Shown here piece after piece: positions 27,726 through 58,900 of a stretch of DNA of 64,000 nt. This stretch comes from a bacterium (GTDB lineage: Bacteria; Hydrothermota; Tepidihabitantia; SM23-42; JAOAFX01). Both the position numbers and the translations under genes were made by a program. The notes beneath the pieces are model-generated. The model made no database searches. It saw nothing but the letters and a program-made list of their open reading frames with translations, and had not been told where the DNA came from. Positions within the stretch are counted from its first letter, which is position 1. Every line of letters begins with the position of its first letter. The stretch is from NCBI GenBank assembly GCA_049700315.1, contig JBNAVN010000001.1, positions 4,776-68,775 on the forward strand, in the 5' to 3' direction.

Positions 27726-29369
27726 ATGAAATATGCCTTGACCATAGCGATTATGCTATCGCTATCTTTTGGACTGATATATGAATCATTCAGGTATCAG
27801 TCTACTGCAGGAATGTTTGAGGATGACTATGACCTGCTTTTTGACCCGGCAAGAATCTGTGAGATACAGGGTTCACGGGCATGGACAAGTCTATCCAATC
27901 TGGTCACGGGTAATGAAAATCTGTTTTCTAATGGAAGTGTCCCCTATATCCTGGTTGGCGGGGCAACAAACCTGGGCAAATTCTATCCTGGTATGGTCTA
28001 TGACCATAGCGTTGACAAAACAGCCCTGGCAACCGGTCTTGTTGATCCCAATGGCAATCAGATATTTGGAGACGGTAAATTGACAACCATTGACTGGAAT
28101 GACAATGATAACAATGGTGTCTATGACCAGCGGATTATTGAGACGCAGACACGTTCAGCCTATGAACAGACAAAAGATAATGATGTCTTTGTTGGTCTGG
28201 GCTACAAATTGGATAATCTACGTTTAGGCCTTGGATATCTCAGGATTGATAATAAATCTATTCTGACCGACCCTTTGAATAACTTCACCTATGATTACAC
28301 AGTGGAAGACCTCACGACAAATAGTTTTACGCTTATAAATAGGGCAGATTTTGCAGGTGATAATAACTACAATTATGGAGAAAATGACCTATTATTCAGT
28401 GTCTGGAAAGATATGGATAAGATATCCATCGGACTCCTTGCGGGCTTTGGATTAATTGGCTATGGAGAAAAAGCAAATATTACAGGAGATTCTACGATTT
28501 ATACAAATCCCGCTGATACAAACACATTCTACACCCGTGCCAATATCATTGATACTGCGAATCAGAAACAGTCGGGCAATGTTATGTCAGTCAATGTCCG
28601 CGCATTCTATAATTACAATGAAAATGCCCAGGGTAGATTCTATCTGGGATTCTACAACCAATCCCTCAGTTATGGTGATAATGCTATGGACTACTATTAC
28701 AAGACACGGGCAAATATCATGGCGCAATTTACCTGGGATACAACCAATACAATTACCTATTATGACGGTTCCTCAAACATCAAAGAGATCCAGATCGGCA
28801 CAAAACAGCTCTTTATTGTTTCAGAAAGACTGAAATTAGGATTTGGCTTACTCCTGTCTACTTCATCTGTGTTTGATTCAACTCTTGCCAGAGATACAAC
28901 GGTCTCAAGAAGAGTTTATGATGACAATGATGGTGTCAGTTTTGACCCTGATGACTATGTGCAGACCATCTGGTCAAGTCAGACCTGGATGACAAAAATC
29001 ACAGGTACGACCAGAGCCATTGCCCTTCCGATTGGTGTTGAATTCTATCTATTCCAGCCATTGGTTCTCAGACTTGGTGCCCAGCATACCTATACGATGG
29101 ATGACTATACTACAGTCACCGAACTTGTCCAGTATGAACCACAAAGAACCAGAACTGTTGATGGCACAGGCACAGTTACCGAAGATCTGATTGATCCTAA
29201 CCCTGCACCGATCGGTTCAGATGAGACAAAAAAAGTGAATACACCTCAGACCGATTATTTCTATGGCATTGGTTGGGCAGTGAATGATAACCTGCAAATT
29301 GATCTAATGGGTTTTAATCAGTTAACCAACCTGACAAATTGGAGAATTTCCGCAACATTGAAATTCTAA
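27726..29369 (+). CDS. Predicted outer-membrane beta-barrel protein (hypothetical)
   Basis: Signal peptide. Alternating amphipathic beta-strand pattern rich in Y/G/N/D. C-terminal ...ISATLKF, an aromatic terminal residue typical of OMPs. Confidence 0.55.
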   Translation: MKYALTIAIMLSLSFGLIYESFRYQSTAGMFEDDYDLLFDPARICEIQGSRAWTSLSNLVTGNENLFSNGSVPYILVGGATNLGKFYPGMVYDHSVDKTALATGLVDPNGNQIFGDGKLTTIDWNDNDNNGVYDQRIIETQTRSAYEQTKDNDVFVGLGYKLDNLRLGLGYLRIDNKSILTDPLNNFTYDYTVEDLTTNSFTLINRADFAGDNNYNYGENDLLFSVWKDMDKISIGLLAGFGLIGYGEKANITGDSTIYTNPADTNTFYTRANIIDTANQKQSGNVMSVNVRAFYNYNENAQGRFYLGFYNQSLSYGDNAMDYYYKTRANIMAQFTWDTTNTITYYDGSSNIKEIQIGTKQLFIVSERLKLGFGLLLSTSSVFDSTLARDTTVSRRVYDDNDGVSFDPDDYVQTIWSSQTWMTKITGTTRAIALPIGVEFYLFQPLVLRLGAQHTYTMDDYTTVTELVQYEPQRTRTVDGTGTVTEDLIDPNPAPIGSDETKKVNTPQTDYFYGIGWAVNDNLQIDLMGFNQLTNLTNWRISATLKF

Positions 29370-29432: not shown

Positions 29433-30665
29433 ATGAAGAAATTGATATTTCTTGGGTTAAGTTTCCTGTTGGTGATTGCCTGTCAAAAGGCAGAGAATAT
29501 CCTGTCACCAGACCCTGATATGCCTCAGGGTATTGGTGCAGGAAATCTGCCTACAGTGACAAGTATTACACCTGTCAACTACACTCAGATGACTGATCAG
29601 AATGGAAGCACCCCAGAAATTCAGGGTTTGATAACCGTAAGTTTTTCAGATTATATGGATCCTGCAAGTGTCACCAATAAAGACAACATCGTTATTCTGG
29701 ATGTAAGAACCAATGCAACAATCTCAAGTAATCTGATTACCACCGAATACTACCCTGAGATCAAAACTCTCTATATCTCAATCTCTAATGTACCTGATTC
29801 TGGATCATTTCTACTCAGACTTGTTTCAGGCTCATCAGGAATGAAAAATATTTATGGCTCGCCACTTGATGGAGATAATGACGATTTTGCTGATGGCACG
29901 CCTTATGATGATTACCATTCAACATTCTGGACCGCTCCGCTTTCTGATACACTTGTTGCCACATTCCAGCCTACGATAGATAACTTTGCGCCCGATACGA
30001 TTGCTACTAATAATACCACGCCCCAGATACAAATCGGTTTTCCCGCAATATCACCGATGGACACAAATACATTGAATACAAATAATATAAAGCTTGCTGA
30101 AGAAAGCGGTGGTTCAGTTACACTAAACATTGTCTCTCGCGATCCCTATGGCATTGTTCTTCAACCCCAGAATCCATTGACAACTGGTAGAAATTACACA
30201 ATTACTGTTGTCTGTAATAATATTAAAAGACTTGGTGATTCAAAAACACCTGCATACTTATTAAGGCTTGATGGCAATGATGATGGCCCTGAAGAAACTG
30301 AGCCGGATTTGCAATCCTATTTCCGGGTTGATGACCCAAATAATCCTCCAAGGATTCAAAGTGTGACCGCGATTGGGACAAGTGGTGTAATGATTACCTT
30401 CACAAGATTGACAGATAATTCAACTATTAATGCAAACAACATTATGGTTTATGATAACAGTGGCTATGTGCCTGGTGATATGAGAATCTATACGAATACT
30501 GGTGGCGATCGTACTATTGTAGATTACTACTACAAGAGAACTATTGGTGGTGGTCGTCGCGTATGGATTTCAAGACAAGTACAAGCAACAAATGGATACA
30601 ATCTTGACGGTAATGGTAATGGCATTGGCGGCGAACCATGGGATGATTATAAGAGTGCATTCTAA
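29433..30665 (+). CDS. Lipoprotein with Ig-like (SbsA/Big-type) domains
   Basis: Lipobox LLVIAC. Repeated beta-rich, T/S/N/D-rich segments. Confidence 0.55.
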   Translation: MKKLIFLGLSFLLVIACQKAENILSPDPDMPQGIGAGNLPTVTSITPVNYTQMTDQNGSTPEIQGLITVSFSDYMDPASVTNKDNIVILDVRTNATISSNLITTEYYPEIKTLYISISNVPDSGSFLLRLVSGSSGMKNIYGSPLDGDNDDFADGTPYDDYHSTFWTAPLSDTLVATFQPTIDNFAPDTIATNNTTPQIQIGFPAISPMDTNTLNTNNIKLAEESGGSVTLNIVSRDPYGIVLQPQNPLTTGRNYTITVVCNNIKRLGDSKTPAYLLRLDGNDDGPEETEPDLQSYFRVDDPNNPPRIQSVTAIGTSGVMITFTRLTDNSTINANNIMVYDNSGYVPGDMRIYTNTGGDRTIVDYYYKRTIGGGRRVWISRQVQATNGYNLDGNGNGIGGEPWDDYKSAF

Positions 30666-30685: not shown

Positions 30686-30721
30686 ATGGTAAAGGGAAGG
30701 GCAATCCGCCCTTCCCTTTTT
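30686..30721 (+). terminator. Rho-independent terminator downstream of the lipoprotein gene
   Basis: AAGGGAAGGGC-AATCC-GCCCTTCCCTT followed by TTTT. Confidence 0.75.
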
Positions 30722-30737
30722 GATTAAGGGAGGTGTA

Positions 30738-31028
30738 ATGGATTTGAACGAATACCAAGAAATCATAAAAGAAATATATTTTGAAAAAGACTCAAACAGG
30801 AGTCTTGATAAGACATTTAACTGGCTTGTTGAAGAAACCGGAGAACTGGCACGGGCAATTCGCAAAAAGGATAAAAAAATGATCACTGAAGAATTTGCTG
30901 ATTGCCTTGCCTGGTTATTATCAGTTGGTTCTATCCTTGGCATTGATGCAGAAAAGGCAATGGAGAAATACGCCAAGGGATGCCCAAAATGTGGGAAAAT
31001 GCCGTGTGGATGTAATGAAGATGGTTGA
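30738..31028 (+). CDS. Small MazG-like nucleotide pyrophosphohydrolase-domain protein with Cys-rich C-terminal tail
   Basis: EExxE metal-binding pattern (LVEETGELARAI...EEFADCLAWLL) of the MazG/HisE superfamily. Tail CPKCGKMPCGC. Start taken at MDLNEY. Confidence 0.65.
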   Translation: MDLNEYQEIIKEIYFEKDSNRSLDKTFNWLVEETGELARAIRKKDKKMITEEFADCLAWLLSVGSILGIDAEKAMEKYAKGCPKCGKMPCGCNEDG

Positions 31029-31053: not shown

Positions 31054-31497
31054 ATGAATCGCAGTAAAAAAATAGCCAGTTTTAGAGATCTAGAAATCTA
31101 TCAAGAATCATACAATGCGGCAATTATGGTCATAAAAAGAATAATCCCTAAGTTGCCGCTGGAGGAAAAATACGACTTAGGCAGTCAATTAAGACGATCG
31201 GTTAAAGCAATTCCCAGGCTTATTGCAGAGGGATATTCCAAAAGACACCAGACCAAAGGTTTTCAGAAATATTTAGATGATGCACTTGCTGAAAGCAATG
31301 AGACAATTGTCTCACTCAGTCAAGTTCGTGATATATATGGTGTTGAAACTGATTTTTGTAATAAACTCATAAATGAATATGAAATTATTTCGCGTCAGAT
31401 TTATCGTTTGACATTGATATGGGAATCCTTTGGCAAAAGAAAAAGACCAACATCTCAACCTAAACCCAATGACCATAACATAGAGGAGGTAAAGTGA
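31054..31497 (+). CDS. Four-helix-bundle protein (family often found in 23S rRNA intervening sequences)
   Basis: SFRDLEIYQESY...IVSLSQ pattern typical of the TIGR02436-like four-helix-bundle family. ATGA overlap with the next gene. Confidence 0.65.
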   Translation: MNRSKKIASFRDLEIYQESYNAAIMVIKRIIPKLPLEEKYDLGSQLRRSVKAIPRLIAEGYSKRHQTKGFQKYLDDALAESNETIVSLSQVRDIYGVETDFCNKLINEYEIISRQIYRLTLIWESFGKRKRPTSQPKPNDHNIEEVK

Positions 31498-32579
31498 CCT
31501 TTTTTCTCTTGATATTCACAACCACCATCTCCCCACCCGGGGTGGTGCGGGCTTATGATGCGCCTGATGATGGCGGTGGTGCTGTAATAATAGAATGGCA
31601 GTTGTCACCAGATGATGCCATTATTGACGGTTATGAAATCTACCGGAGCGAAAATGGAATAGATTTTGAAAAGGTAGGATTTATCGGCAGGAGTAGAAAT
31701 TCCATTGATGACCAGACCGAAGATGGAACGAAATATTACTACAGAGTTGCTTCCCTGAAAGATACCGTAAGAGTATTTTCAGATATATCTTCACCGGTTA
31801 TGAGTTCTGCCCAGTGGATTGACCGCAATAAAATCAATATCCTCGTTGCATTGATGATTTTTGGTGGCATCATATTATATTATGTTTATCACGCAAAAAA
31901 AGGCAAAGAATTATACATTCGTAGAATCGCTGGACTTCAAGCAGTGGATGATGCAGTGGGCAGGGCAACAGAAATGGGCAAACCACTATTGTATATTCCG
32001 GGAATAGGCTATATAGAATATATTGCCACGATTGCATCAATGAACATCCTGGGAGAAGTAGCAAAGAAAGTTGCTCAGTATGATACCAAGTTCATAAATC
32101 CTCATGCTGACCCAATCGTTTATACTGTAGCACGGGAAATCATAAAAGAGGCATATACCAAAGTGGGGAGGCCAGACGCCTTCAATCCTGATTGCGTCTA
32201 TTTTATTACTGATTCCCAATTTGCCTTTGCCGCTGCCTGTGATGGTATAATGGTCCGTGAGCAACCAGCCGCGAATTTTTTGATTGGCTGGTTCCGTGCT
32301 GAATCTCTCATTCTTGCCGAAACCGGTGCTTCAACTGGGGCAATCCAAATTGCGGGAACCGACCAGTTGTCACAATTGCCTTTCTTTGTCACTGCCTGCG
32401 ATTATACATTGATTGGAGAAGAGTTATATGCAGCATCCGCATATATTTCAAAAGAACCATTGCTTTTAGGAGCCATCAAGGGGGAAGACCTTATTAAACT
32501 CATCATTGGTATTGTACTGATTTGCGCCTCGGTCATCGGTCTTAGCACGAAATTCCCAATCTTGAATTTGTTTAGATAG
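31494..32579 (+). CDS. Module copy 1, protein A: signal peptide + FN3-like domain + TM + conserved ~230 aa cytoplasmic domain + C-terminal TM (unknown family)
   Basis: Paralogous to 36400-37156 of ORF 35033-37156 and to 59521-60600(-). Shared motifs RRIAGLxAxDxAVGRATEMGKP, DPIVYTVAREI, AESLIxAExGASTGAIQIAGTD, QLPFFVTACDYTLIGEELYAASAY. Confidence 0.8.
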   Translation: MTFFLLIFTTTISPPGVVRAYDAPDDGGGAVIIEWQLSPDDAIIDGYEIYRSENGIDFEKVGFIGRSRNSIDDQTEDGTKYYYRVASLKDTVRVFSDISSPVMSSAQWIDRNKINILVALMIFGGIILYYVYHAKKGKELYIRRIAGLQAVDDAVGRATEMGKPLLYIPGIGYIEYIATIASMNILGEVAKKVAQYDTKFINPHADPIVYTVAREIIKEAYTKVGRPDAFNPDCVYFITDSQFAFAAACDGIMVREQPAANFLIGWFRAESLILAETGASTGAIQIAGTDQLSQLPFFVTACDYTLIGEELYAASAYISKEPLLLGAIKGEDLIKLIIGIVLICASVIGLSTKFPILNLFR

Positions 32580-32588
32580 GAGGATGAT

Positions 32589-33248
32589 ATGAAAAGAACA
32601 CTCCCTCTGATTTTAGTCTTCATCTTTGGAATTTGTGGTATTATTCCATTTTTAATACCACATCCTTATGTCCAGGGAACCGATGAGTTGTTACGTAATG
32701 ATTTATTAAGAATCCTCGCTGCATTCGCGCTGGTCTTAGGATTAGGGAGTCTACTGAGTGTCCACTTTGAAAAAATTCGTCGGCATAGACAAAACTGGCA
32801 ATATTCCTATGTTTTACTCATTGTCTTTTTTGTCACTTCAATCATCGGTCTTTTCGGTGGAGTTGCCGGTACCGGACCATTGCCGACAAAAATCGGTGCA
32901 TTCCCTTTTGACATCCAAACAATTTATATGAATATTGAAGTTCCGCTTGGTTCTACAATGTTTGCGCTATTGGCATTTTTGATGGCATCTGCTGCATACC
33001 GTGCTTTCCGTGCCCGCTCAACCGAAGCAAGTCTACTTCTTGTCGCAGCATTTATCGTAATGATTGGTATCCTCCCCCTTGGGAATAAAATTTCACCACA
33101 TCTTCCTTCATTCGCCCAATGGATTATGGATGTCCCAAATGTTGCGGGTAAAAGAGGTATTGGCTTTGGCATCGCCCTTGGCTCATTGGCAACAGCACTG
33201 AAAATCATTCTTGGAATAGAAAGGTCATGGCTTGGAGGTGGTGAATGA
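32589..33248 (+). CDS. Module copy 1, protein B: polytopic inner-membrane protein (unknown family)
   Basis: Paralogous to 37264-37941 and 58901-59524(-). Shared motifs [11 protein letters not shown], [18 protein letters not shown], LGIERSWLGG. Confidence 0.8.
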   Translation: MKRTLPLILVFIFGICGIIPFLIPHPYVQGTDELLRNDLLRILAAFALVLGLGSLLSVHFEKIRRHRQNWQYSYVLLIVFFVTSIIGLFGGVAGTGPLPTKIGAFPFDIQTIYMNIEVPLGSTMFALLAFLMASAAYRAFRARSTEASLLLVAAFIVMIGILPLGNKISPHLPSFAQWIMDVPNVAGKRGIGFGIALGSLATALKIILGIERSWLGGGE

Positions 33249-34108
33249 AGATTGTTGATCTAATGCTAAAGATTGACCGAAGAATCATCTATCTTGCCCT
33301 TGCTATTGTAGTAATTGTTCCATTGATTATAAAGTCCCCTCAGCATGTCCGAGTGATGACACCAGTTGAAAAACTTTTCAATGCGGTTGACACAATTCAT
33401 CAGGATAAAGCAATGATTCTTGACTGCGATTATGACCCTCAAACACAACCAGAATTGGAGCCTATGGCAATTGCTGTTCTCAGACACGCCTTCAAGAAAA
33501 GAATCAAGGTGCTGGTCTTGAGTTTATATGTGCAACCATTGGGGCTGGCAAAAGCCGCCTTAGACCAAACCGTGCAAGAACATAACCGCGAAGCAAAAAC
33601 GAATGAAGATAGTCTAATCTATGGAAGAGATTATGTCTTTTTAGGATGGCAGCCACCACCAATTGTTCCAATGCTCGGTATGGGTGAGAGTATTACCAAG
33701 GTTTACAAAAAAGATTATTACGGTCATCAGACAGATTCTCTGCCCCTGATGAAGACGATAAAGAACTACAATAATATTGAACTACTCGTATCACTGAGTG
33801 GTGCTGATACACCTCTTCTCTGGGTTGCCTATGCTCAAAACAGATTTGGAGTTCCGGTTGGTGCTGGGTGTACGGCTGTTTCAGCATCTGATTTCTATCC
33901 CTATCTTCAGACCGGTCAATTTTCTGGTCTATTGATCGGAATGAAGGGCGGTGCTGAATATGAAGAAATCGTAGAAGGAAAACTCGGAATACAGAGAAGA
34001 AGAAAGGCGAGCGAATCGCTTCTTTCACTTACTTATGCCCATTTGATAATGATATTATTTATTATTATTGGTAACATAGGTTATTTCATCAAGAGGAGGC
34101 AGAAATGA
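33245..34108 (+). CDS. Module copy 1, protein C: bitopic protein with N- and C-terminal TM helices and a ~230 aa periplasmic domain (unknown family)
   Basis: Paralogous to 37991-38866 and 58048-58869(-). Shared motifs LKIDRRIxxLxxAL, DYDPQTxPELxPMxIAxLRHAF, IYGRDYVFLG. Overlaps B by 4 nt. Confidence 0.8.
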   Translation: MKIVDLMLKIDRRIIYLALAIVVIVPLIIKSPQHVRVMTPVEKLFNAVDTIHQDKAMILDCDYDPQTQPELEPMAIAVLRHAFKKRIKVLVLSLYVQPLGLAKAALDQTVQEHNREAKTNEDSLIYGRDYVFLGWQPPPIVPMLGMGESITKVYKKDYYGHQTDSLPLMKTIKNYNNIELLVSLSGADTPLLWVAYAQNRFGVPVGAGCTAVSASDFYPYLQTGQFSGLLIGMKGGAEYEEIVEGKLGIQRRRKASESLLSLTYAHLIMILFIIIGNIGYFIKRRQK

Positions 34109-34746
34109 GTTTCAGTCATGACCCCTGGATCTGGATTAGTTCACTTTTGAGCCTTGCAATATTCTCTTTTCTTTACAAAGATAACCCATTCTACAAATTT
34201 GCTGAACATGTCTTTGTTGGCGCAGCAAATGGCTATGCAGTAACATTCTACTGGCACAATATCCTGGTTCCCTCACTCTTTGACCCGTTATTCAGACAAG
34301 GAAAATTACTTTATATAATAATCTTTGTTGTTGGTATACTATACTTCACAAGATTTATTCCTAAGATTTCCTGGCTTGTTAGAATACCAATTGCCATTCA
34401 AATTGGTTATTATACAGGTGCTGCTATTCCCGCAACCATACAAGCGGATATCATAAAGCAAATTCAGGGAACAATTCTTACAAAAGAGAACTTCCTCGCC
34501 TGGCATGCGGGAAACACGGGCATAGTCTGGTCAGTGATTCTGCTTGTTGGTGTCCTGTGCACTCTTTCCTACTTCTATTTTTCCCGAGAACACAAAGGAG
34601 TACTAAAAGTCACTTCACGCATTGGTATTGTTTTTATTATGATCGGTTTTGGTGCGGCATTCGGTTATACAGTAATGGCTAGGGTGAGCCTTTTGATTGG
34701 TCGGTTACAATTTCTACTGGGCCCCTGGCTGGGAATAATTAAATAA
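34105..34746 (+). CDS. Module copy 1, protein D: polytopic membrane protein (unknown family)
   Basis: Paralogous to 38998-39618 and 57434-58051(-). Shared motifs DPWIWIxxxL, FLYKxNPFY, SWLVRIPIA, ADIIKQIQGT, SREHKG, VMARxSLLIGRLQFLxGxWLGII. Overlaps C by 4 nt. Confidence 0.8.
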   Translation: MSFSHDPWIWISSLLSLAIFSFLYKDNPFYKFAEHVFVGAANGYAVTFYWHNILVPSLFDPLFRQGKLLYIIIFVVGILYFTRFIPKISWLVRIPIAIQIGYYTGAAIPATIQADIIKQIQGTILTKENFLAWHAGNTGIVWSVILLVGVLCTLSYFYFSREHKGVLKVTSRIGIVFIMIGFGAAFGYTVMARVSLLIGRLQFLLGPWLGIIK

Positions 34747-34840
34747 CAAATACTGGTTAGATTGTTAAATGGTTAAATAAACAAAGGTAATAAAGGGAAT
34801 TTTAAAGAGAAGGTGGTATTACTAAAATAAGACTAAAAAA

Positions 34841-34877
34841 TGCAACATTTCTCTGCCTGGCAGAAAAATGTTGCAAA
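34841..34877. promoter_or_regulatory. 16-17 bp near-perfect inverted repeat (TGCAACATTTCTCTGCC / GGCAGAAAAATGTTGCA) in the intergenic region between module copies 1 and 2
   Basis: Read directly from the sequence. Spacerless palindrome with one mismatch. Candidate operator or structured RNA upstream of the copy-2 A gene. Confidence 0.45.
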
Positions 34878-35032
34878 ATGTAAGATTTATCTTGATTTTT
34901 ATGGAATAACAAATATACTTAAGAGTAGCTTCATATCGGTCAAATCCGACTGTGAAAAATTAAATTGCTGATTTTTATTGGAACATGAATGTAAGGCAAC
35001 GTTTGAAGATGGGCGCACAATTATAAAAAGGG

Positions 35033-37156
35033 GTGTTTATGATGAACTCCATATTTTTTATCTTTGTTTTCTCGGTCCTGAATCCGCCCGAAAATGTTCG
35101 GGCATTGAAGGTAATCAATCAGGATAGCATCAGCATCACCATCACCTGGGATGTAAAAGAAGAAAAGGATTTTGATGGTTTTGAAATCTATCGCTCAAAA
35201 TATAAACTCTTAAAAACTGTATTTCAGGATACCATCTTTATTGATAATGATATCAAGACTGATAACGAATATCTCTATGATATAGTAAAAAAAGAAAGAA
35301 TGAAGGAATACAACCATCAAAAGAATTTTCTAAAGGTCGTCTCAATCGGTTATTTAGTTATAAAAGATACAATTAATAAAAGGAATATCATAAAATGGAG
35401 AAGACCAAATGACCTCTACCTCGGCGAAACTTATGAGATATGGCGCACAGAAAAGAATGGCGATTATGAACTCCTCGGTAGTGTGGATAAGAACCAAAAA
35501 AGTTTCCGTGATACGACAATGAAGGATGGGGTAAAATACTTCTATAAGGTTGCAGGGATAAAAGGGAATGAAAAAATATTCTCAGAGCCATCTTCTCCAC
35601 TCTTTACCATTGGCACTCCAAAATTTATCCATACTTGTGATATTCCCAATGACGAAGGAGAAGGTTTCAGAATAACCTGGGAACCGTCTCCAAATTATGA
35701 TATGATAAAGAGTTATGCATTGCTGCGCCTTGTCTATGATTCTATCGCTGCATTCAAAGATACCTTTTCTTATACTGATACAACTATAAAAAAAGATATT
35801 GAATACCATTACTACATTGGGAAAAACTATCAGATCACAATGCCGGCAAAGATTGTAGCAGATTCAATAGGAATGACAGGTAGGGTAATAAAAATAGAAT
35901 GGAAACTAAATCCGAAAGTTATTGGTCAGAATTATGACCTTACCCTTGTCTATCGTGCTGAAAGAGATAGTGCTGATAGATTCAAATATGTTGATTATAC
36001 TGCACCGGATGAAACAAAGTTTTTGGATGGAACTGCAGAACCAGATAAAGAATATATCTATGAAGCAAGGGCGGTTAAGGAAATCTCAATCCCATTCAAG
36101 ATTGAAAAGGATACAATCATCAATGGCAAAAGAAGTATTTCACTTTTCTGGAAAGGTTCAAAAGAACCACCTGAATTCTTGGGATATTATGTAATGCGGG
36201 CAGAAAAGGATAGTGGAAATTATGGTGTTTATGCACGTCTGGGAACTCAGATAGATAAATATCAGGACCGGGTTGGTATATATAACGGAATTCCTTATGC
36301 TTACCAGATTGTAGCAATAACAAAAGATGGAGAAAGAATATCATCAAAGACAACACCTTATGTGGTTGCTTCTCCCCAGTGGTTTCATACCGGTAGAATA
36401 AATGCCCTGATTGGCATTGTGATATTCATCTTTCTCGTCATATTCTTTATGGAATATACAAAAAAGGCAAAAAAGGATATCTTTGTGCGGCGCATTGCAG
36501 GTTTGTCAGCAATTGATGAGGCAGTGGGCAGGGCAACAGAAATGGGAAGACCAATTCTCTATGTTCCCGGGACATCGGTCATTGACGATGTCGCAACAAT
36601 TGCATCTTTGAATATTCTTGCTGAAGTCGCAAAAAAGACTGCGCAGTATAATACGCCATTAATCGTCCCCAACCGTGACCCGATTGTCTATACAGTCGCT
36701 CGCGAGGTTGTTAAAGAATCCTATAACAAAGTAGGCAGACCTGATGCATTTAATCCTGATAGTGTATATTTCGTCACTGATTCCCAGTTTGCCTATGCAG
36801 CAGCAGTAAGCGGCATTATGATCAGAGAAAAACCCGCAACAAATTTTCTGGTTGGAATGTTCTGGGCAGAATCTTTGATTATGGCAGAAAGCGGTGCATC
36901 TACTGGTGCAATACAGATTGCAGGAACAGATGCAGTTACACAACTGCCATTCTTTATCACGGCCTGCGATTATACACTCATTGGTGAAGAACTATATGCA
37001 GCAAGTGCATACATCTCAAGGAACCCAACGCTTTTAGCCGCGCTGAAGAGTCAGGATTATTGCAAATTAGTAATTGCCGGGGTGATGGCAATAGCAACAT
37101 TCCTTGCCCTTTTAAAAATCGGCATCCCGGTATTTAATTTATTCAATATTCAATGA
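35033..37156 (+). CDS. Module copy 2, protein A (expanded: signal peptide + ~5 FN3-like repeats + TM + conserved cytoplasmic domain + C-terminal TM)
   Basis: 707 aa. The C-terminal 250 aa align motif-for-motif with copy-1 A. The N-terminus holds repeated units with W...Y(E/R)I(Y/W)R...KY(F/Y)YKVAGI patterns. Confidence 0.8.
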   Translation: MFMMNSIFFIFVFSVLNPPENVRALKVINQDSISITITWDVKEEKDFDGFEIYRSKYKLLKTVFQDTIFIDNDIKTDNEYLYDIVKKERMKEYNHQKNFLKVVSIGYLVIKDTINKRNIIKWRRPNDLYLGETYEIWRTEKNGDYELLGSVDKNQKSFRDTTMKDGVKYFYKVAGIKGNEKIFSEPSSPLFTIGTPKFIHTCDIPNDEGEGFRITWEPSPNYDMIKSYALLRLVYDSIAAFKDTFSYTDTTIKKDIEYHYYIGKNYQITMPAKIVADSIGMTGRVIKIEWKLNPKVIGQNYDLTLVYRAERDSADRFKYVDYTAPDETKFLDGTAEPDKEYIYEARAVKEISIPFKIEKDTIINGKRSISLFWKGSKEPPEFLGYYVMRAEKDSGNYGVYARLGTQIDKYQDRVGIYNGIPYAYQIVAITKDGERISSKTTPYVVASPQWFHTGRINALIGIVIFIFLVIFFMEYTKKAKKDIFVRRIAGLSAIDEAVGRATEMGRPILYVPGTSVIDDVATIASLNILAEVAKKTAQYNTPLIVPNRDPIVYTVAREVVKESYNKVGRPDAFNPDSVYFVTDSQFAYAAAVSGIMIREKPATNFLVGMFWAESLIMAESGASTGAIQIAGTDAVTQLPFFITACDYTLIGEELYAASAYISRNPTLLAALKSQDYCKLVIAGVMAIATFLALLKIGIPVFNLFNIQ

Positions 37157-37263
37157 AAAAAGTTGGTTAAATGGTTAAAAGGTTAGATATAAAAAAGAAT
37201 GGTATCTTGTTGTTGTTCCAATTATTTAACCAATTACCATTTAACCAAAAATAAGGAGGTCTT

Positions 37264-37941
37264 ATGCAAAGAACAATTCCTTTAATAATTGTTTTGATAA
37301 TCGGCATTGCAATGCTTGTCCAATTCTTTGTTCCCCACAAGATATCCAAGGATATCTATATGTACTTCCTTGACTGGCTTGGAATCATTGCAGCATTCGC
37401 ACTGGTCCTTGGATTGGGCAGTTTGATAAACCATCACCTGGACAAGATTCAAAGGAAAAGAGAACACTGGCCCTATTCTTATGTTACATTGATTGCCATT
37501 TTGGTTACGGCAATAATCGGGCTTTTTGGCGGAATGGAAGGTAAGGGACCTTTACCAGTTCAACCACAATTTATGCTTGGCAATAAACTTATTGTGATTA
37601 AATATTCAATCCAGACAATCTATGAAAATATCATGACCCCGCTTGGTGGAACAATGTTTGCACTTCTGGCATTTTTTATGGCTTCAGCAGCGTATCGTGC
37701 ATTCCGTGCCCGCACATTTGAAGCCACACTCTTACTTGTTGCTGCATTCATCGTAATGATTGGTGTGGTACCACTTGGTTATTACATTTCACCAAAACTT
37801 CCTCATCTTGCTCAGTGGATAATGGATGTACCAAATACCGCTTCCAAAAGGGGAATCCTGTTTGGCGTTGGTCTGGGAATTGCCTCAACTTCTCTAAAGA
37901 TTATGCTCGGTATTGAAAGGAACTGGCTGGGAGGAAAATGA
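37264..37941 (+). CDS. Module copy 2, protein B
   Basis: 225 aa. Same motifs as copy-1 B. Confidence 0.8.
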
Positions 37942-37990
37942 TGGTCAAATCGTCTGATAGTTGGATGGTTAAAATAGGAAGGAGTAGAAT

Positions 37991-38866
37991 ATGAATCTGT
38001 GGGAGTATCTGTTAAAAATTGATAGAAGAATTGTTTTCTTGCTTGTTGGACTTTCGGTATTGATACCGTTAATATTCCCATTTGCAATAAAGACAAATGT
38101 AATGCCGCCAACCCAGACATTATTTAATACCATTGAAGAAATTGACCCTGAGGCAAAAGGCATTCTGATTGCTGCGGATTATGACCCTCAGACAATGCCT
38201 GAACTACAGCCAATGTTGATTGCCCTTTTGCGACATGCTTTTGCAAGAAGAATTCCTGTTCTTGTGATGACTTCTTATATTCAGGGTCCTGGGCTTGCAA
38301 AACAGGGACTTGACCAGGTGACCCAGGAATTCAATAGCCAGGCAATGATAAACGCAGATTCAATAATATACGGAAGGGATTATGTCTTTTTGGGTTTTCC
38401 ACCATTGTGGCTCGCTGCGGTTCTGAGAATGGGTTCTGATATCAGTCAGGCATTTCCTGCAGATTACTATAAAAACAGAACCGGATCTCTTGAAATGATG
38501 AAAAGAATAAAAAACTATAATGATATTGGGATTATTGTCTCCATTGCAGGTAGTGCCATTCCTCAATCCTGGGTAACCTATGCAAATACAAGATTTGGTG
38601 TAAAGGTCGGCTCAGGTGCAACTGCGGTCACTGCCCCTGATTTCTATCCATTCCTACAGACCGGACAGATGAGCGGAATGATTGCCGGATTGAAAGGCGC
38701 TTCTGAATATGAGTATCTTGTCAATACAAAATATAATCTTACCGGTCCAACCCCAGCGACAAGGGGGATGAGTTCCCAGTCTATTGCCCATCTTATGATT
38801 TTGCTTCTGGTCATCATCGGTAACATCGGACATTTTGCCACCCGCAAGAAGAAAACAAATGGTTAA
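37991..38866 (+). CDS. Module copy 2, protein C
   Basis: 291 aa. Same motifs and topology as copy-1 C. Confidence 0.8.
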   Translation: MNLWEYLLKIDRRIVFLLVGLSVLIPLIFPFAIKTNVMPPTQTLFNTIEEIDPEAKGILIAADYDPQTMPELQPMLIALLRHAFARRIPVLVMTSYIQGPGLAKQGLDQVTQEFNSQAMINADSIIYGRDYVFLGFPPLWLAAVLRMGSDISQAFPADYYKNRTGSLEMMKRIKNYNDIGIIVSIAGSAIPQSWVTYANTRFGVKVGSGATAVTAPDFYPFLQTGQMSGMIAGLKGASEYEYLVNTKYNLTGPTPATRGMSSQSIAHLMILLLVIIGNIGHFATRKKKTNG

Positions 38867-38909
38867 ATGGTTAAATAAATTGAGTGAAATGGAAAAGGGT
38901 TGAATAAAA

Positions 38910-39008
38910 ATGGAAAAGAACAGTAAAGAAAAGAAAAAGTTTAAGACTTTTGAGGATTTAGAAATTTATAAAAAGGCAAGAGAGTTTAGGAGGTTTTATG
39001 AGCAATGA
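38910..39008 (+). pseudogene. Truncated N-terminal remnant (32 codons) of a four-helix-bundle protein gene
   Basis: MEKNSKEKKKFKTFEDLEIYKKAREFRRFYEQ* shares the (F)xDLEIY motif with the intact four-helix-bundle gene at 31054. It ends overlapping the copy-2 D start. Its AGGAGG serves as the D2 ribosome-binding site. Confidence 0.45.
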
Positions 39009-39618
39009 TCCCTGGATCTGGATTGGTGCATTCTTGACCATCGGAATTCTCTCTTTTCTGTATAAAGAGAATCCATTTTATAGATTTTGTGAGCATTTAT
39101 TTGTGGGTGTAGCAAATGGTTATGCCATTGCCGTAACCTGGCATCTGATATTGACACCAAGGCTCATTATGCCTTTGCAGGGCGGAAATTATCTTGTGCT
39201 CATTCCGATGATCATTGGTTTACTCTATTTTTGTAGGTTTATTCCCAAGGTATCCTGGCTTGTGCGGATTCCTATTGCGGTTGCCTTGGGATTCTCTTCA
39301 GGTGTGAGCATCCCTGCCATATTGCAGGCAGATATCATTAAGCAAATTCAAGGAACAGTTGTTTATCCCCATTTGTTTAACAACTGGCAGCAGGGATTAT
39401 GGGCAGTGCTAATATTCGTCGGTGTCATTGCCACGATATTCTTCTTCTTCTTTTCCAAAGAACATAAAGGAATTCTCAAACCGGTCTCCTATATTGGTAT
39501 TATCTTCATTATGGTTGGTTTTGGTGCATCTTTTGGTTATACAGTTATGGCACGATTATCACTACTTATCGGCAGATTACAATTTTTATTTGGCACCTGG
39601 CTGGGAATAATAAGATAA
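38998..39618 (+). CDS. Module copy 2, protein D
   Basis: 206 aa. Same motifs as copy-1 D. Confidence 0.8.
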   Translation: MSNDPWIWIGAFLTIGILSFLYKENPFYRFCEHLFVGVANGYAIAVTWHLILTPRLIMPLQGGNYLVLIPMIIGLLYFCRFIPKVSWLVRIPIAVALGFSSGVSIPAILQADIIKQIQGTVVYPHLFNNWQQGLWAVLIFVGVIATIFFFFFSKEHKGILKPVSYIGIIFIMVGFGASFGYTVMARLSLLIGRLQFLFGTWLGIIR

Positions 39619-39733: not shown

Positions 39734-41377
39734 TTAGTGGGTGACCACCAATTTGGCTGAAACAACCTTTTTGTCAGCCTTCAGCACAGCAATATAGGCA
39801 CCATTCGCAAGTTCACGGGTATCAAGTGAAGTGGTATAAAATCCAGCATTTCTATTGCCCTGGTCAATGGTCTGGACCAATCTGCCATCAACAGTGTAAA
39901 GATTAATTGAAACACTGCCTGATTTGGGTAAGGCATAGGAAATGCCAGTTTGATTGCGTACTGGATTGGGTGCAATACTTAGTGCAAGTTTCTTCGGTGT
40001 CTCGGTTCTGTTTTCAGCAATACCCACAATTGGATTCCTGCCAACATACCAGCGAGCAGGAGTCGCAGCTCCTCCATTATTGATGTTCCAGTAGAGATCC
40101 AGCAATGGATCTGCGATAGCACAGCCAAATGCAAAGAATAATTGTCCATTTCCTGCGGAATCAAGCCTCTTGGAAATCTGCCATAGACAGTTGTTGTGGT
40201 CAGTAATGGAACCGGTCAGGTTTCTTGGTGTTGACCAGGTAGCACCATTATTCGCGGAATAGTTATAATAGACATCCCAGAATGTATACTGACCTGTGCC
40301 ACTGCGCGGCTGACCAAATAGCGCCACCACATAATTACCTTCCGCAGCAACTGTTGGATAGAAATTCCGTGCATCAGTTGCAGTATTACCCACTTCTATA
40401 CAATTGGCACCTGAAGCCGTGGAAACATAGACCTTACCACGATAAGGATAATTGCCTGCACCATAATCATCACCATGCCAGTTATCAAAGATCAGAATCG
40501 GATTACCCGCATCGGTAACCGCAAGCTGGGTGTAAGCAATGATATTGCTCGGAAATGGATTGGGCCAGACCAGGTTGTAAGATTGCTGGGCACTCCAGGT
40601 CAGACCATCTGTTGTTGTCTTGTAGTAAACATTGAGTGCATCATCATAATAAAATACGTAGGCAATTCCGCCATTCAGATCAAAGCCCCAATAATTTGAA
40701 ACTGCTGGTGCAATCGTGCCACCGGCAAGTCTTGTAGTAAGGTCCGTGCTGTATGTGCTCCAGAGAATATTACCATTTTGTTCAACACCAACAAAGAGTA
40801 TGTTACCGTTCGGCAACTGCTTACCAGGGTTCTTATGGGTTCCCAAATTTCCTGTGCCCACATCTACTGGTGTATCCCAGAATGAAGAGAACCAGCCACC
40901 ACTCTCATATTGAGCACCCATTCCACCCCAGGCACCACCGATAAGATATGGAAATGAGATATGTGGGCCAGAACCATTTATTGAAGCCACTGCACCAGGA
41001 TACCGGGCTGGACCAAGATCACCTGCATAAACCTCAACATCAGTCAATGCGCCACTAAAAATGTTATCATTCTGCCATACATCAAGGTTGCCACTTGTGA
41101 CAAAATTTCTGCAGACAAATTCAACATAACCGTCACCCGGCTCATAAGCAAGACATTCTTGCATCTGGGTCCACATAGAATATTCGTTTGCTGAAGAATC
41201 GGCAACTTCAATATCTCTTGTGACCATTACCGGGACATGTTTGTCACAAGTACCTGTACCATCATCCATCTTTGCCCTGTCAATATTTGCGGGCACAGTA
41301 ACTGCCCAGATTACACAGGCAAAAACCATAATAATTGATAGTTTCTTCATTTTTCTCTCCTTTCTTTTATATTTCAT
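39734..41377 (-). CDS. T9SS cargo protein with BNR/sialidase-like repeats (probable glycosidase)
   Basis: Signal peptide. BNR motifs SxDxGxTW (TTDGLTWS, SANNGATWS). C-terminal T9SS CTD (AYIAVLKADKKVVSAKLVVTH). Confidence 0.65.
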   Translation of the reverse strand: MKYKRKERKMKKLSIIMVFACVIWAVTVPANIDRAKMDDGTGTCDKHVPVMVTRDIEVADSSANEYSMWTQMQECLAYEPGDGYVEFVCRNFVTSGNLDVWQNDNIFSGALTDVEVYAGDLGPARYPGAVASINGSGPHISFPYLIGGAWGGMGAQYESGGWFSSFWDTPVDVGTGNLGTHKNPGKQLPNGNILFVGVEQNGNILWSTYSTDLTTRLAGGTIAPAVSNYWGFDLNGGIAYVFYYDDALNVYYKTTTDGLTWSAQQSYNLVWPNPFPSNIIAYTQLAVTDAGNPILIFDNWHGDDYGAGNYPYRGKVYVSTASGANCIEVGNTATDARNFYPTVAAEGNYVVALFGQPRSGTGQYTFWDVYYNYSANNGATWSTPRNLTGSITDHNNCLWQISKRLDSAGNGQLFFAFGCAIADPLLDLYWNINNGGAATPARWYVGRNPIVGIAENRTETPKKLALSIAPNPVRNQTGISYALPKSGSVSINLYTVDGRLVQTIDQGNRNAGFYTTSLDTRELANGAYIAVLKADKKVVSAKLVVTH

Positions 41378-41452
41378 ATATCACCATAACCACCACATTG
41401 TGGTTGGCTTTTCTGCTATTATTTTTTATTATCGCATCACCTCCTTTTTTCT

Positions 41453-44101
41453 TTATTTAACCAGAAGCACCTTAATAATGAAGTTATGTTCACCAGTATG
41501 AACCCGCACAAAATAAACGCCAGACGCGCAACCATCTGGTAACCACAGAAAATCATTATTGCCTTTGGATAATCTGCCTTGATAAATCGTTGCGGTTTTT
41601 CTACCGGTGATATCAAAAACTTCAATTGCCCCTGTTATTTCTTTGTCGATTGAAAATTGAATATGCACAGAAGAATTCAAGTTGGCGGGCTGGGGCAATA
41701 CCTTCAAAAAACCAGAGATGGACTCTTTGTAATTTTCTTCAACACCCACAACATCCTGTTTGATAATCAATAATCCAGAATTGCCATCAGCAAGATAAAT
41801 CAGATTATTTCTATCATCAAAACTCGTAGCAGTACTGACCGAGAGCATATATCCAACTTCTGCGGGTGCTGATGGACTGGCAACATTTATCACCCTGATA
41901 CCACCTGCTGTTCCGTCAGCAACAAAAATGTGATTGTTGAAATACTGGACACCAGAAGCAGTTCCTGGCGTATCAAGAGAACCTAACAATACAAGGGTAT
42001 CAGAGTTTGATACATCAAAGACCTTAATTCCAGCCGTGCCATCTGCAGCATATACATAATTGCCTGCTTTTGCCACACTATATGCTATTCCATTCGTATC
42101 ATAATATCCTGTTTCAACTGGATTGGAAGGGGTTGAAACATCTATTATTCTCACACCTTTTGTAGCATCTGCAACATAGGCAAAGTTATTGGAAACTACA
42201 ACATCATAGGCAAACCCTGCGGTGTTGAATGTCCCGAGAATTACTGGACTTGCAGGATTTTGCACATTGACAATGACCAATCCTTGAGACCGAGCACAAA
42301 CATAGAGCGTATTGCCTGAAACAAATAAACCAAGCACATCATCTGCTAAACTTAATTTTCCTATCTGAACAGGATTTGTTGGATTGGACAACGAAAGAAT
42401 TCTCAGGGTATCTTCACGATCACCAATATATAAATACTGGGATGAGCCGGTAATCGTGATTGAATTGCCTGGCAGGCTTATCTGATTTACATAATCAGGC
42501 AATGTTGAATCACTCACATCCAAGACAATCAAACCTGCAGGACCATCCACAATATATGCATAATTACCCAGAACCACAACATCATTTGCCCAGCCTGGTG
42601 TGTCATAATGTCCGATCAGATTAACATTTGTAGAGTGGTTCAATTCTACTACCCGAGACCTGCCAAAACTTCCATCTGCAGCAAGCCGGGTGTTACCTGA
42701 ATTCAGGGCACTAATATTCACCCGGAGTGAGCAACCAACAACATCTGTACAGGTCCAGACATATTTACCAGTATTGGGAACATTGTTGGCAATCAATGTC
42801 CAGCGCAATGAATCGTAACTATCAAGATTATTACCCTTTGACCACCATAGTTTCATATGATCAATCTCAGTTCCTTCAGTATGCCAGCGAATCGCATATT
42901 TTATATTCTTGAACATTACCGGTATATTGTAAGTATCACCACCCCTTGGATAATCCAGGAAAACATTATTTGGATTTGAACCACCAGGTACAAGGGTTAC
43001 GACATAATCATAAGAATACACTCCATTATAATATGTCCACAGGGGCCAGAGCGGTTCATTGTTATCCCAAGTTGTATGGACAATGACAAATGTGTCACTA
43101 CTGGTAATCTCGTAACCAACACCAGTAATGGAATGATTAATATAATCAGACATTGGTGGATACCAGTAATAAAGAACATTCCAGTGACAGGGCCGCTGAC
43201 CATCAATCTCAGTTTTTATCCAGGAGAAAACATATTGGTTCCAGTTGCCACCCTGTGGTGAGGTGGCAGATGTAAATGAATAACTATTATATGTATTCGC
43301 AACGGTTAGCATACCAGGTCTGATATTACCAATCGTTGTGCCACCGGTCAGAGTATCAGTATTCATTGCGATAGCAAGTTCACGATTCGTATTGGCACAA
43401 TCATTCCATTCATTCTCAGGGTTGTCCCAGTGTGTGAAAAAATGATCAACAAGTTTTCCATAACCCCGATAATCCCAGTACCAGAACATCATAGAAGCAG
43501 CAGTTGGTGAACATCCATACACCCAGTCAATAAAAGGCACCGAATCAACATAACCACTTTGCAGGATTCTAAAATCATCAATCTCCAGATATCGCTCCCA
43601 CTTCTGCCTTGTGAGCGATTCAAGATTTGGATCAGACTTGCATTTTTCCAATTCCTCATTTAAGCGAATCTGTCCGTTTCGGACATTTACCAACATCTTT
43701 TTTCCATCTACATCAAAACCTGCATATTCTTCCCCTGCTCCAAAATAGTAGTAATGCTGGAATACCGGCTCACCAGAAATTTGCTTTCTCAAATTATCCA
43801 ATGCACGGTTCAGGAATTTCTCACAATATGGTGCACTGTGATATATTTCACCAACCGGTGATGTAGTATATCTTGCACCCATTATAATGGTTATACTATC
43901 CTTTCCATCTTGAAATACATAACCATGAGCATTGGGGCTTTCATCAATGCCAAAATAGGTTATGACATTACTCAACCTGTATTCTGAACCATATCTCTGT
44001 TCAACGAACTTATATGCCAATGTTTCAATTTTTTCTCTGGGTACAAATTCAGAACCCAGAACAATGCCCGCCATAATCAACAAAACAGAAAATTTCTTCA
44101 T
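41453..44101 (-). CDS. C10-family (streptopain-like) cysteine peptidase with N-terminal Spi-inhibitor-like prodomain, LVIVD beta-propeller repeats and T9SS CTD
   Basis: Catalytic-Cys region VYGCSPTAASMMFWYWDYRGYG. Tandem repeats of the pattern YVADxxxGLxIxDVSNPxxP. C-terminus GVYFVRVHTGEHNFIIKVLLVK. Confidence 0.7.
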   Translation of the reverse strand: MKKFSVLLIMAGIVLGSEFVPREKIETLAYKFVEQRYGSEYRLSNVITYFGIDESPNAHGYVFQDGKDSITIIMGARYTTSPVGEIYHSAPYCEKFLNRALDNLRKQISGEPVFQHYYYFGAGEEYAGFDVDGKKMLVNVRNGQIRLNEELEKCKSDPNLESLTRQKWERYLEIDDFRILQSGYVDSVPFIDWVYGCSPTAASMMFWYWDYRGYGKLVDHFFTHWDNPENEWNDCANTNRELAIAMNTDTLTGGTTIGNIRPGMLTVANTYNSYSFTSATSPQGGNWNQYVFSWIKTEIDGQRPCHWNVLYYWYPPMSDYINHSITGVGYEITSSDTFVIVHTTWDNNEPLWPLWTYYNGVYSYDYVVTLVPGGSNPNNVFLDYPRGGDTYNIPVMFKNIKYAIRWHTEGTEIDHMKLWWSKGNNLDSYDSLRWTLIANNVPNTGKYVWTCTDVVGCSLRVNISALNSGNTRLAADGSFGRSRVVELNHSTNVNLIGHYDTPGWANDVVVLGNYAYIVDGPAGLIVLDVSDSTLPDYVNQISLPGNSITITGSSQYLYIGDREDTLRILSLSNPTNPVQIGKLSLADDVLGLFVSGNTLYVCARSQGLVIVNVQNPASPVILGTFNTAGFAYDVVVSNNFAYVADATKGVRIIDVSTPSNPVETGYYDTNGIAYSVAKAGNYVYAADGTAGIKVFDVSNSDTLVLLGSLDTPGTASGVQYFNNHIFVADGTAGGIRVINVASPSAPAEVGYMLSVSTATSFDDRNNLIYLADGNSGLLIIKQDVVGVEENYKESISGFLKVLPQPANLNSSVHIQFSIDKEITGAIEVFDITGRKTATIYQGRLSKGNNDFLWLPDGCASGVYFVRVHTGEHNFIIKVLLVK

Positions 44102-52834: not shown

Positions 52835-53231
52835 AAGTTATCTTAAATGCCCGAGACTCTTTCAGTTGATCAAGAACAACATCAACAGTGCCATATTCAA
52901 TATTTTCATCAATGTTGAGAATCGTAACCAGCTCTGGATTTTCTGCAATCTTGGGGAGCATTTTTGTACTCACCCTTTCCTTTGGAACAAGACTATCATC
53001 AATAAACACCCTGCCGTTATTATCAACCCAGACATGGGTGATATTTCTTCGGATCAAGATTCTTTCAGTAGATTTTGCCTTGGGTAAAATAAGTTTAAGA
53101 TTGAGTGCAGTTGCTCTGAACACGGTTGTCACCATAAAGAAAAGAATCAACAAGAATGCAACATCAGCAGTTGATGCAGTGGGAATGTCCGGTGTTTTTG
53201 TAAATCTTCTTATAATACTCTTACGCATCAT
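52812..53231 (-). CDS. exbD: Biopolymer transporter ExbD/TolR (paralogue 2)
   Basis: 139 aa. N-terminal TM with ADVAFLLILFFMVTTVF motif. Confidence 0.8.
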   Translation of the reverse strand: MMRKSIIRRFTKTPDIPTASTADVAFLLILFFMVTTVFRATALNLKLILPKAKSTERILIRRNITHVWVDNNGRVFIDDSLVPKERVSTKMLPKIAENPELVTILNIDENIEYGTVDVVLDQLKESRAFKITFATEFGG

Positions 53232-55792: not shown

Positions 55793-55803
55793 CTCTTACC
55801 CCC

Positions 55804-56589: not shown

Positions 56590-56596
56590 CTCCTTT

Positions 56597-58869: not shown

Positions 58870-58900
58870 AATTTAGTGCTTCCGCAAAACGATAGACTTT

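Follow-up and report, generated by a model that had tools for sequence, protein, structure and literature searches.

What could be the function of four membrane-protein genes that follow one another in a fixed order and are then repeated, in that same order, immediately downstream? The question is raised by a 64,000-nt stretch of bacterial DNA (contig JBNAVN010000001.1 of assembly GCA_049700315.1, Hydrothermota; hereafter the window), in which two such cassettes, made of genes here termed A, B, C and D, had been pointed out by a first-pass annotation as a candidate novel envelope system. The four genes make up a self-contained operon, partly translationally coupled and coding for four integral inner-membrane proteins; they belong to four mutually unrelated, uncharacterised families that keep a fixed order over several phyla, often with two or three diverged copies of the operon per genome. 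The reading we favour, to which a probability of roughly 0.4 may be assigned, is that the four proteins assemble into one complex, and that this complex is a new type of transporter relying on a binding domain in the periplasm.

Gene order and paralogy of the A-B-C-D cassettes

Cassette 1 (nt 31494–34746) and cassette 2 (nt 35033–39618) consist of eight consecutive open reading frames (ORFs) on the plus strand. The former includes A1 (nt 31494–32579, 361 aa), B1 (nt 32589–33248, 219 aa), C1 (nt 33245–34108, 287 aa) and D1 (nt 34105–34746, 213 aa), the latter their paralogues A2 (nt 35033–37156, 707 aa), B2 (nt 37264–37941, 225 aa), C2 (nt 37991–38866, 291 aa) and D2 (nt 38998–39618, 206 aa). 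This is the arrangement given by the first-pass annotation and a check of the ORFs bore it out, although a third cassette, located on the minus strand (nt 57434–60600), had been overlooked. The latter was retrieved with hidden Markov models (HMMs) built from the families and is composed of A3 (nt 59521–60600, 359 aa), B3 (nt 58901–59524, 207 aa), C3 (nt 58048–58869, 273 aa) and D3 (nt 57434–58051, 205 aa), with 4-nt overlaps between A3 and B3 and between C3 and D3, and no gap between D3 and the next gene. The segment upstream of A1 (nt 31054–31497, plus strand), previously counted as part of the module, encodes a PF05635 four-helix-bundle ('23S rRNA IVS') protein (Pfam, E 6.8e-20) which is not one of its components, and whose gene overlaps the GTG start of A1 by 4 nt. 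Overlaps of 4 nt had also been described throughout the four genes of cassette 1; they were found at the B1/C1 and C1/D1 junctions only, A1 and B1 being separated by a 9-nt gap.

Comparison of cassettes 1 and 2 by BLASTP returned protein identities of 53% for A1/A2 (over the C-terminal 343 aa, E 1e-121), 61% for B1/B2, 49% for C1/C2 and 60% for D1/D2. Since DNA identity reaches only 65–73% (with protein identity of 49–61%), the two cassettes derive from an old duplication and not from an assembly artefact, which the first-pass annotation had named as an outcome that would refute its reading. The layout recurs in an independent metagenome contig (L016; loci are designated by L and a number), where the first A has 360 aa and the second 707 aa. 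Cassette 3 shares with cassettes 1 and 2 an identity of 45–49% in A, B and D (47% for A3 with A1, 45–46% for B3 with B1/B2 and 49% for D3 with D1/D2), and of 32–33% in C (C3 with C1/C2).

A1 is identical to a protein of a metagenome-assembled genome annotated at NCBI as 'DUF6754 domain-containing protein', and its closest relatives belong to candidate division WOR-3. When clustered at 90%, the families count at least 8000 A-like, at least 7999 D-like and 3673 C-like sequences; at 50% identity, 3423 C clusters were obtained (E≤1e-3), 495 of them with E≤1e-30. About 100 loci were examined, from WOR-3, TA06, Stahlbacteria, Armatimonadota, Ca. Lernaella and metagenome bins. The order A-B-C-D was observed in 81/81 complete cassettes, the distant ones of Armatimonadota, Ca. 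Lernaella and elsewhere included, and two or three tandem cassettes were present in at least 12 loci. The proposal of a conserved, co-transcribed four-gene membrane module stands.

Some features of the intergenic DNA deserve mention. Spacers separate all the genes of cassette 2, in contrast with cassette 1. The motif GGTTAAATGGTTAAA, admitting up to 2 mismatches, occurs in 6 copies in the window against 0.41 expected, and 5/6 of them lie just past the D1, A2 and C2 stop codons (nt 34755–34777, 37165–37187 and 38861–38875; also nt 37942–37990); the A2-B2 spacer also has an inverted copy, which would give a hairpin. These repeats could represent an insertion scar or an intergenic RNA element. 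The 286 nt that separate cassette 1 from cassette 2 include a perfect palindrome with a 16-bp stem (nt 34841–34875); having its T-run on the minus strand only, it does not qualify as a classical terminator of the plus-strand operon. A stretch in the C2-D2 spacer (nt 38909–38992; peptide FEDLEIYKKAREF), resembling by eye the N-terminus of a PF05635 protein, was considered as a remnant of such a gene and discarded, having no significant match by tblastn. No Rfam riboswitch was found ahead of the cassettes, the Rfam matches being two tRNAs elsewhere in the window.

Topology and conservation of the four proteins

The conserved domain of A corresponds to Pfam DUF6754 (PF20539), matched full-length (profile positions 2–257) with 378.6, 377.7 and 391.2 bits by A1, A2 and A3, respectively, against a gathering threshold of 27. 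The description of the module as made of unrecognised families is thus correct for B, C and D, and none of the four is characterised, while A belongs to a catalogued family, albeit one without an assigned function. The general architecture of A includes 0–5 periplasmic FN3 units, a transmembrane (TM) helix, an acidic cytoplasmic domain of ~195 aa, a second TM helix and a short tail. In A1, a short hydrophobic N-terminus is followed by one FN3 unit (aa 14–104), TM1 (aa 114–132), the cytoplasmic DUF6754 domain (aa ~133–325) and TM2 (aa 332–350). One unit was likewise detected in A3, and five FN3-like units in A2 with the family FN3 HMM (aa 18–89, 119–190, 197–263, 281–350 and 359–446), upstream of the TM, DUF6754 and TM elements; A2 also belongs to Pfam fn3, with 27.5 bits against a cut-off of 25. 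A profile search of the PDB with the A family matched the FN3 of titin (E 6e-6) and, as to the cytoplasmic domain, nothing. The AlphaFold model of A1 is confident for FN3 and TM helices, with a predicted local distance difference test score (pLDDT) of ~80–90 in the FN3 strands. The A protein of L015 (284 aa) is without FN3, and that of L096 has a classical signal peptide at its N-terminus, which supports the topology given below.

Topology was derived from hydropathy and positive-inside statistics over 82–96 sequences per family. The 15 residues past TM1 of A carry a net charge of +4.2, compared with +0.07 before it, thus placing the domain in the cytoplasm, where its own net charge is -9.5 ± 1.5. 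Its mean column identity is 65%, many Gly, Arg, Glu, Asp and Gln positions being invariant, and its sequence reads as an alternating beta-alpha domain. Two motifs were evaluated as catalytic or nucleotide-binding signatures and rejected: GASTG (GxSxG) as a hydrolase nucleophile elbow, because Ser is replaced by Thr in some members and the helix-then-strand order reverses the elbow, and GRATEMGKP as a P-loop, because the spacing is wrong, no Ser/Thr follows the Lys and the motif lies at a helix end and not after a strand. No mention of DUF6754 or PF20539 was found in the literature library searched.

B is predicted to have six TM helices with both termini inside and cytoplasmic loops of net charge +3.2 and +2.3; B1 displays the conserved TM4-YRAFRAR-TM5 hairpin and the C-terminal LGIERxWLGG motif. 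D would have about six TM helices and its N-terminus outside, which fits the extra N-terminal anchor and the 120-aa extension found in the D protein of L013; in D1 a conserved cytoplasmic KDNPFYKFAEH loop and a TM6 with the sequence FGASFGYTVMAR and an amphipathic C-terminus were recognised. Both tails of C are basic (+1.9 and +3.0), thus locating its domain in the periplasm, as also fits the CARDB-containing insertion in the C protein of L014. In C1, TM1 (aa 12–29) is followed by the six-stranded Rossmann-like periplasmic domain (aa 39–247) and by a long TM2 helix (aa 254–286).

The AlphaFold model of C, based on a 111-sequence alignment with a median identity of ~33%, reached a pLDDT of 97 and a predicted template modelling score of 0.93, and consists of a compact globular beta-alpha domain of ~210 aa, six-stranded and Rossmann-like, with a TM helix on each side. 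The most conserved residues are D62, P65, E70, P73, D129, D157, T210, V212, Q225, G228, G232, G235, Y239 and E240, which, judging from the order of the secondary-structure elements and not from coordinates, would fall at the C-terminal ends of beta1, beta5 and beta6 and in the loops that follow. The C-terminal strand edge is the usual ligand-binding edge of Rossmann-like folds, and the placement of these residues suggests that C carries a candidate binding site. TM2 of C holds H266 and an invariant N277. Size variants were also encountered: the C protein of L096 (630 aa, L096:7001–8893) has a tandem-duplicated Rossmann domain, that of L014 (838 aa, L014:8001–10517) the above-mentioned insertion with CARDB, of ~550 aa, and the B protein of L099 (804 aa, L099:4181–6595) presumably a large insertion.

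The alignments confirmed that the motifs quoted in the first-pass annotation are real and conserved family-wide. Its topology is likewise retained in most respects: FN3 lies outside the inner membrane and DUF6754 in the cytoplasm, both B and D cross the membrane several times, and C is TM-anchored at both ends with its domain outside; in a diderm, however, the FN3 units are periplasmic and not extracellular. The mechanical picture that accompanied it did not hold, as C is a compact globular domain clamped at the membrane rather than a periplasm-spanning strut, and a receptor role of the FN3 arm was not borne out, some homologues lacking FN3. A novel envelope system is therefore supported as a candidate, without the receptor arm and the strut.

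Searches with B, C and D gave no match in Pfam or NCBIfam, the precomputed Pfam assignments being empty for all listed homologues, and no match in profile searches of the PDB. A member-by-member Pfam scan returned scattered sub-threshold noise from TM-rich families for 72 B proteins and nothing consistent for 76 D proteins, and PADLOC gave no match for nine proteins. No match to ABC-2/GldFG, exosortase, MotA/ExbB or defence systems emerged from the profiles, and all the refuting checks listed in the first-pass annotation proved negative. Nor was any relationship detected among the four families themselves; in particular, A/C (both TM-alpha/beta domain-TM) and B/D (both with about six TM helices, in apparently opposite orientation) were tried as inverted homologous pairs and rejected, since hhalign (with shallow alignments and with deeper ones of 68–96 sequences) gave probabilities of at most 3%, limited to TM helices.

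Conservation was compared in 56 non-redundant cassettes (1540 pairs). In 93% of pairs the cytoplasmic domain of A ranked first in conservation among the subunits, and in 88% C ranked last, mean pairwise identity being 61% for the A domain, 52% for D, 48% for B and 43% for C. Within B and D, cytoplasmic loops and adjoining TM helices scored 0.75–0.86, compared with 0.40–0.43 for periplasmic loops, and the top-conserved stretches were TM4-YRAFRAR-TM5 and TM6-LGIER in B, TM1-KDNPFYKFAEH and TM6 in D. We infer that the cytoplasmic A domain docked on B and D forms the conserved core. C and FN3, on the periplasmic side, differ most from one paralogue to another, which would be expected of a part that sets specificity; binding-protein-dependent transporters follow such a logic.

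Genomic surroundings of the cassettes

The immediate neighbours of the cassettes were surveyed in ~75 non-redundant loci (133 flanking genes, 121 Pfam families). No consistently linked partner or ATPase was found, no family accounting for more than 7/133 genes. Housekeeping genes prevail. The commonest family was purF (7), ahead of PF05635 (6), Wza-like SLBB (5), lipoate ligase (4), and rpsA, Sua5 and Wzi (3 each), and the top three have the appearance of synteny within lineages or of mobile insertions. A PF05635 gene was also found between B and C in L004 (L004:2225–2626), and genes of this family appear to insert into spacers of the ABCD operon.

A different association was found in some lineages. 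In L096, L076, L086 and L082, four same-strand genes lie upstream of A, encoding a two-TM protein of 150 aa, a 125-aa protein, a 600-aa ASKHA-type ATPase-like protein of the MutL/GlmL family (PF13941, E 5e-127) and a 374-aa protein in which a weak barrel-sandwich signal was detected. In L096, neighbouring genes of this set, like the set and A, either overlap by 4 nt or are 1–2 nt apart. In L099 the ATPase-like and 374-aa genes sit after D, and in Armatimonadota the 374-aa gene only is present (locations: L096:910–4706, L076:394–4250, L086:223–4033, L082:984–4239, L099:8201–11153 and L011:2943–4064). The occurrence of the MutL-like/374-aa linkage in two arrangements suggests a functional partnership in those lineages, and this gene set is the sole candidate for an energy-supplying partner seen at any locus. 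None of the four genes is present within the 64-kb window. PDB sequence-profile searches with two further proteins (labelled G and H), as well as a literature search on PF13941 and on WOR-3 with FN3, yielded nothing useful.

Upstream of cassette 1, and of the PF05635 gene, a small MazG-like NTP pyrophosphohydrolase is encoded (nt 30720–31028, plus strand, 102 aa; Pfam MazG, E 6.5e-13). Homologues of it lie upstream of A in ten related loci, plus L014 and L098, and the gene may merely be co-transcribed with the module. A full-length MazG (nt 62092–62850, minus strand, 252 aa) is encoded two genes upstream of cassette 3. Further upstream of cassette 1, a 547-aa protein without Pfam match (nt 27726–29369), whose C-terminal ...ISATLKF resembles the terminus of an outer-membrane beta-barrel, is followed by a Big_5 Ig-like lipoprotein (nt 29433–30665); the 547-aa protein is conserved upstream of cassettes in L001–L003 and L016.

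Cassette 3 is followed on the minus strand (nt 55205–57433) by a gene, directly after D3, for a DUF4388/PATAN-domain protein (nt 56597–57433, 278 aa), DUF4388 having been equated with the PATAN domain (bioRxiv 10.1101/2021.06.11.447907), and then by genes for two unknown proteins, the first of 261 aa and the second of 195 aa. The linkage of D, PATAN and the 261-aa protein recurs in L081, L079 and L082 (29–31% identity in L082). A genuine ExbB-ExbD pair is encoded separately (nt 53228–54316). C-terminal sorting domains of the type IX secretion system (T9SS) were recognised on several large secreted proteins (nt 25650–27317 and 39734–44101 of the window), the T9SS-sorted proteins being an Omp28/MAM protein, a 547-aa protein and an LVIVD-repeat/C39-like protein; their presence in the products of flanking genes indicates that the host is a diderm with T9SS-type secretion.

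Possible functions and comparison with known systems

If A, B, C and D form a single transporter, B and D, with about six TM helices each, would constitute the membrane pathway. The periplasmic Rossmann-like domain of C, held above the membrane by its own two TM helices, would bind the ligand or cap the pathway and set the specificity of each paralogue. The acidic DUF6754 domain of A would dock on the basic cytoplasmic loops of B and D and gate or energise the cycle, and the FN3 unit(s) of A would serve as an optional periplasmic arm of variable length. The WOR-3 operons contain no ATPase gene.

Several points weigh against a transporter. No subunit resembles any known transporter in sequence or structure searches, and no energy-coupling motif was found in A-D (neither Walker motifs nor a conserved acidic residue in a TM core). 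Nutrient transporters often adjoin catabolic genes or regulators, unlike the ABCD cassettes, which lie among housekeeping genes (purF, rpsA, mazG, gidB, sua5). The conservation of the A domain looks more enzyme-like than gate-like, and the AlphaFold model of A1 is unusable in the DUF6754 domain (pLDDT <50), the input alignment being too shallow (68–85% identity). Moreover, it is the operon structure, and that only, from which the assembly of the four proteins into one complex is deduced.

Some of these points also count in favour of a machine of envelope biogenesis or export, acting, for example, on surface polysaccharide, lipid-linked glycan or the anchoring of surface proteins. In such a machine the enzyme would be A, working in the cytoplasm while anchored to the membrane; its product would be carried across by B and D, and C with the FN3/CARDB arms would hand it on in the periplasm. 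The enzyme-level conservation of the A domain (65% mean column identity) and the core-genome, housekeeping positions of the cassettes agree with such a role, as do a GT2 glycosyltransferase gene directly upstream of A3, the Wza-like (SLBB/Poly_export) and Wzi genes flanking the cassette in 5 and 3 loci, respectively, the NAD-dependent epimerase and phosphoglucomutase genes after D in L015 and L098, and the FN3 and CARDB domains themselves, typical of cell-surface or glycan-associated proteins. Nevertheless, each of these neighbours occurs in at most ~6% of loci, which may be close relatives, no glycosyltransferase, flippase or polymerase signature was found in A-D, and tandem paralogues with a fastest-diverging periplasmic subunit fit substrate-specific transport equally or better; we regard this role as unlikely, albeit as the main rival of the transporter. 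An ion-driven motor or mechanotransducer comparable to ExbBD-TonB, MotAB or GldLM/PorLM, which would use the FN3 arm to pass inner-membrane energy on to the periplasm or outer membrane, appears improbable. Such motors are typically multi-copy, the five FN3 units of A2 could span the periplasm, the host is a diderm with many T9SS-type cargo proteins, and cassette 3 is followed by a PATAN-domain protein, PATAN regulators being known to act on pilus motors (bioRxiv 10.1101/2021.06.11.447907). On the contrary, no TM core contains a conserved acidic residue, MotA_ExbB was matched by B1 with 14.9 bits against a cut-off of 22.9 and by 1/72 B members, hhalign of B, D and C with the ExbB/ExbD of the window gave probabilities of 0.1–0.3%, the FN3 arm is dispensable in some lineages and the true ExbB and ExbD genes are encoded elsewhere in the window.

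The variable periplasmic and conserved cytoplasmic sides would also suit a signal-transducing receptor complex, in which FN3 and C act as sensors and DUF6754 as the output, and neighbouring genes occasionally encode PilZ-like, GGDEF or PATAN-domain proteins. Such a complex is quite improbable, given that A-D contain no known signalling domain, that no cognate regulator consistently adjoins them, and that four obligatory membrane subunits, two of them polytopic, are unusual in a sensor. Least credible of all is that the cassettes are a divergent form of a known system (ABC-2/GldFG, exosortase, ECF or TRAP transporter) or an artefact of assembly. GldG has a TM-periplasmic domain-TM topology, like that of C, and the layout recalls an ATP-binding cassette (ABC) importer; yet no profile match to such families was obtained with 72–111 diverse members per subunit, no ABC ATPase adjoins any of the ~100 loci, and, as to an artefact, the paralogues are only 32–61% identical and the layout recurs in independent assemblies.

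Stated more broadly than as a transporter, ABCD might represent a class of inner-membrane machines of several subunits that has so far gone unrecognised and whose task would be transport or the transduction of energy or substrate. Its engine would be DUF6754, a cytoplasmic alpha/beta domain tethered to the membrane and without known relatives, joined in some lineages by a MutL/GlmL-type ASKHA ATPase. In WOR-3, TA06, Stahlbacteria, Armatimonadota and related uncultured phyla, paralogous copies of the module would serve a core function of the envelope; this wider proposal is put forward tentatively. If the four proteins are indeed one machine, they would represent a large membrane system, with thousands of sequences in several phyla and without a characterised relative, carried in the core genome by lineages for which metagenomes are the only source. 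Knowledge of its role could help to explain how these bacteria obtain nutrients or construct their envelope, and would give a function to DUF6754 as well as define three protein families new to Pfam; the MutL-like ATPase link suggests, in some lineages, a candidate energy source. The genes had already been deposited as 'hypothetical' or 'DUF6754'; we found no prior description of the operon, and neither Pfam nor NCBIfam includes the B, C and D families.

As far as the evidence goes, the module falls outside every kind of known system with which it was compared, A, B and D having been compared by sequence profiles, so that a comparison at HHpred or fold level might still connect it to a known superfamily. 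The domains of A1–A3 are full members of DUF6754 (PF20539), a family that is defined as a domain of unknown function and covers one of the four subunits; its operon context, its B, C and D partners and its topology are contained in no description we found. The predicted model of C, the one reliable structure, has no specific relative: the Rossmann domains of RCK/KTN (TrkA-N) show ~10% sequence identity to it and C has no TrkA_N match in Pfam, an acidic DYDP...PE..PM loop following beta1 in place of GxGxxG and a predicted location in the periplasm instead of the cytoplasm. GldF/GldG and ExbBD/GldLM are likewise equipped with periplasmic arms and sit in the inner membrane of FCB-group-like diderms, and C shares the TM-periplasmic domain-TM organisation; they differ in that ABCD has no profile similarity to them, no GldA-type ATPase and no conserved acidic TM residue, and hhalign against the ExbB/ExbD of the window was negative. 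As to exosortases, no EpsH match was found in Pfam or NCBIfam, but only a match of B to 'midcut_by_XrtH' that is below threshold (14 against 45 bits). ABC systems are distinguished by their ATPase and permease families: no ABC_tran match was found in A-D or among the top families of the flanking genes surveyed, no BPD_transp_1 or ABC2_membrane among the weak matches of the 72 B and 76 D proteins, and no ABC_transp_aux, C having no Pfam match. In architecture, and by analogy only, type I ABC importers are nonetheless alike, since they too combine in one operon two different subunits of about six TM helices, a periplasmic alpha/beta domain and a conserved cytoplasmic alpha/beta domain, and in their paralogue families, as in the ABCD cassettes, it is the periplasmic component that diverges fastest.

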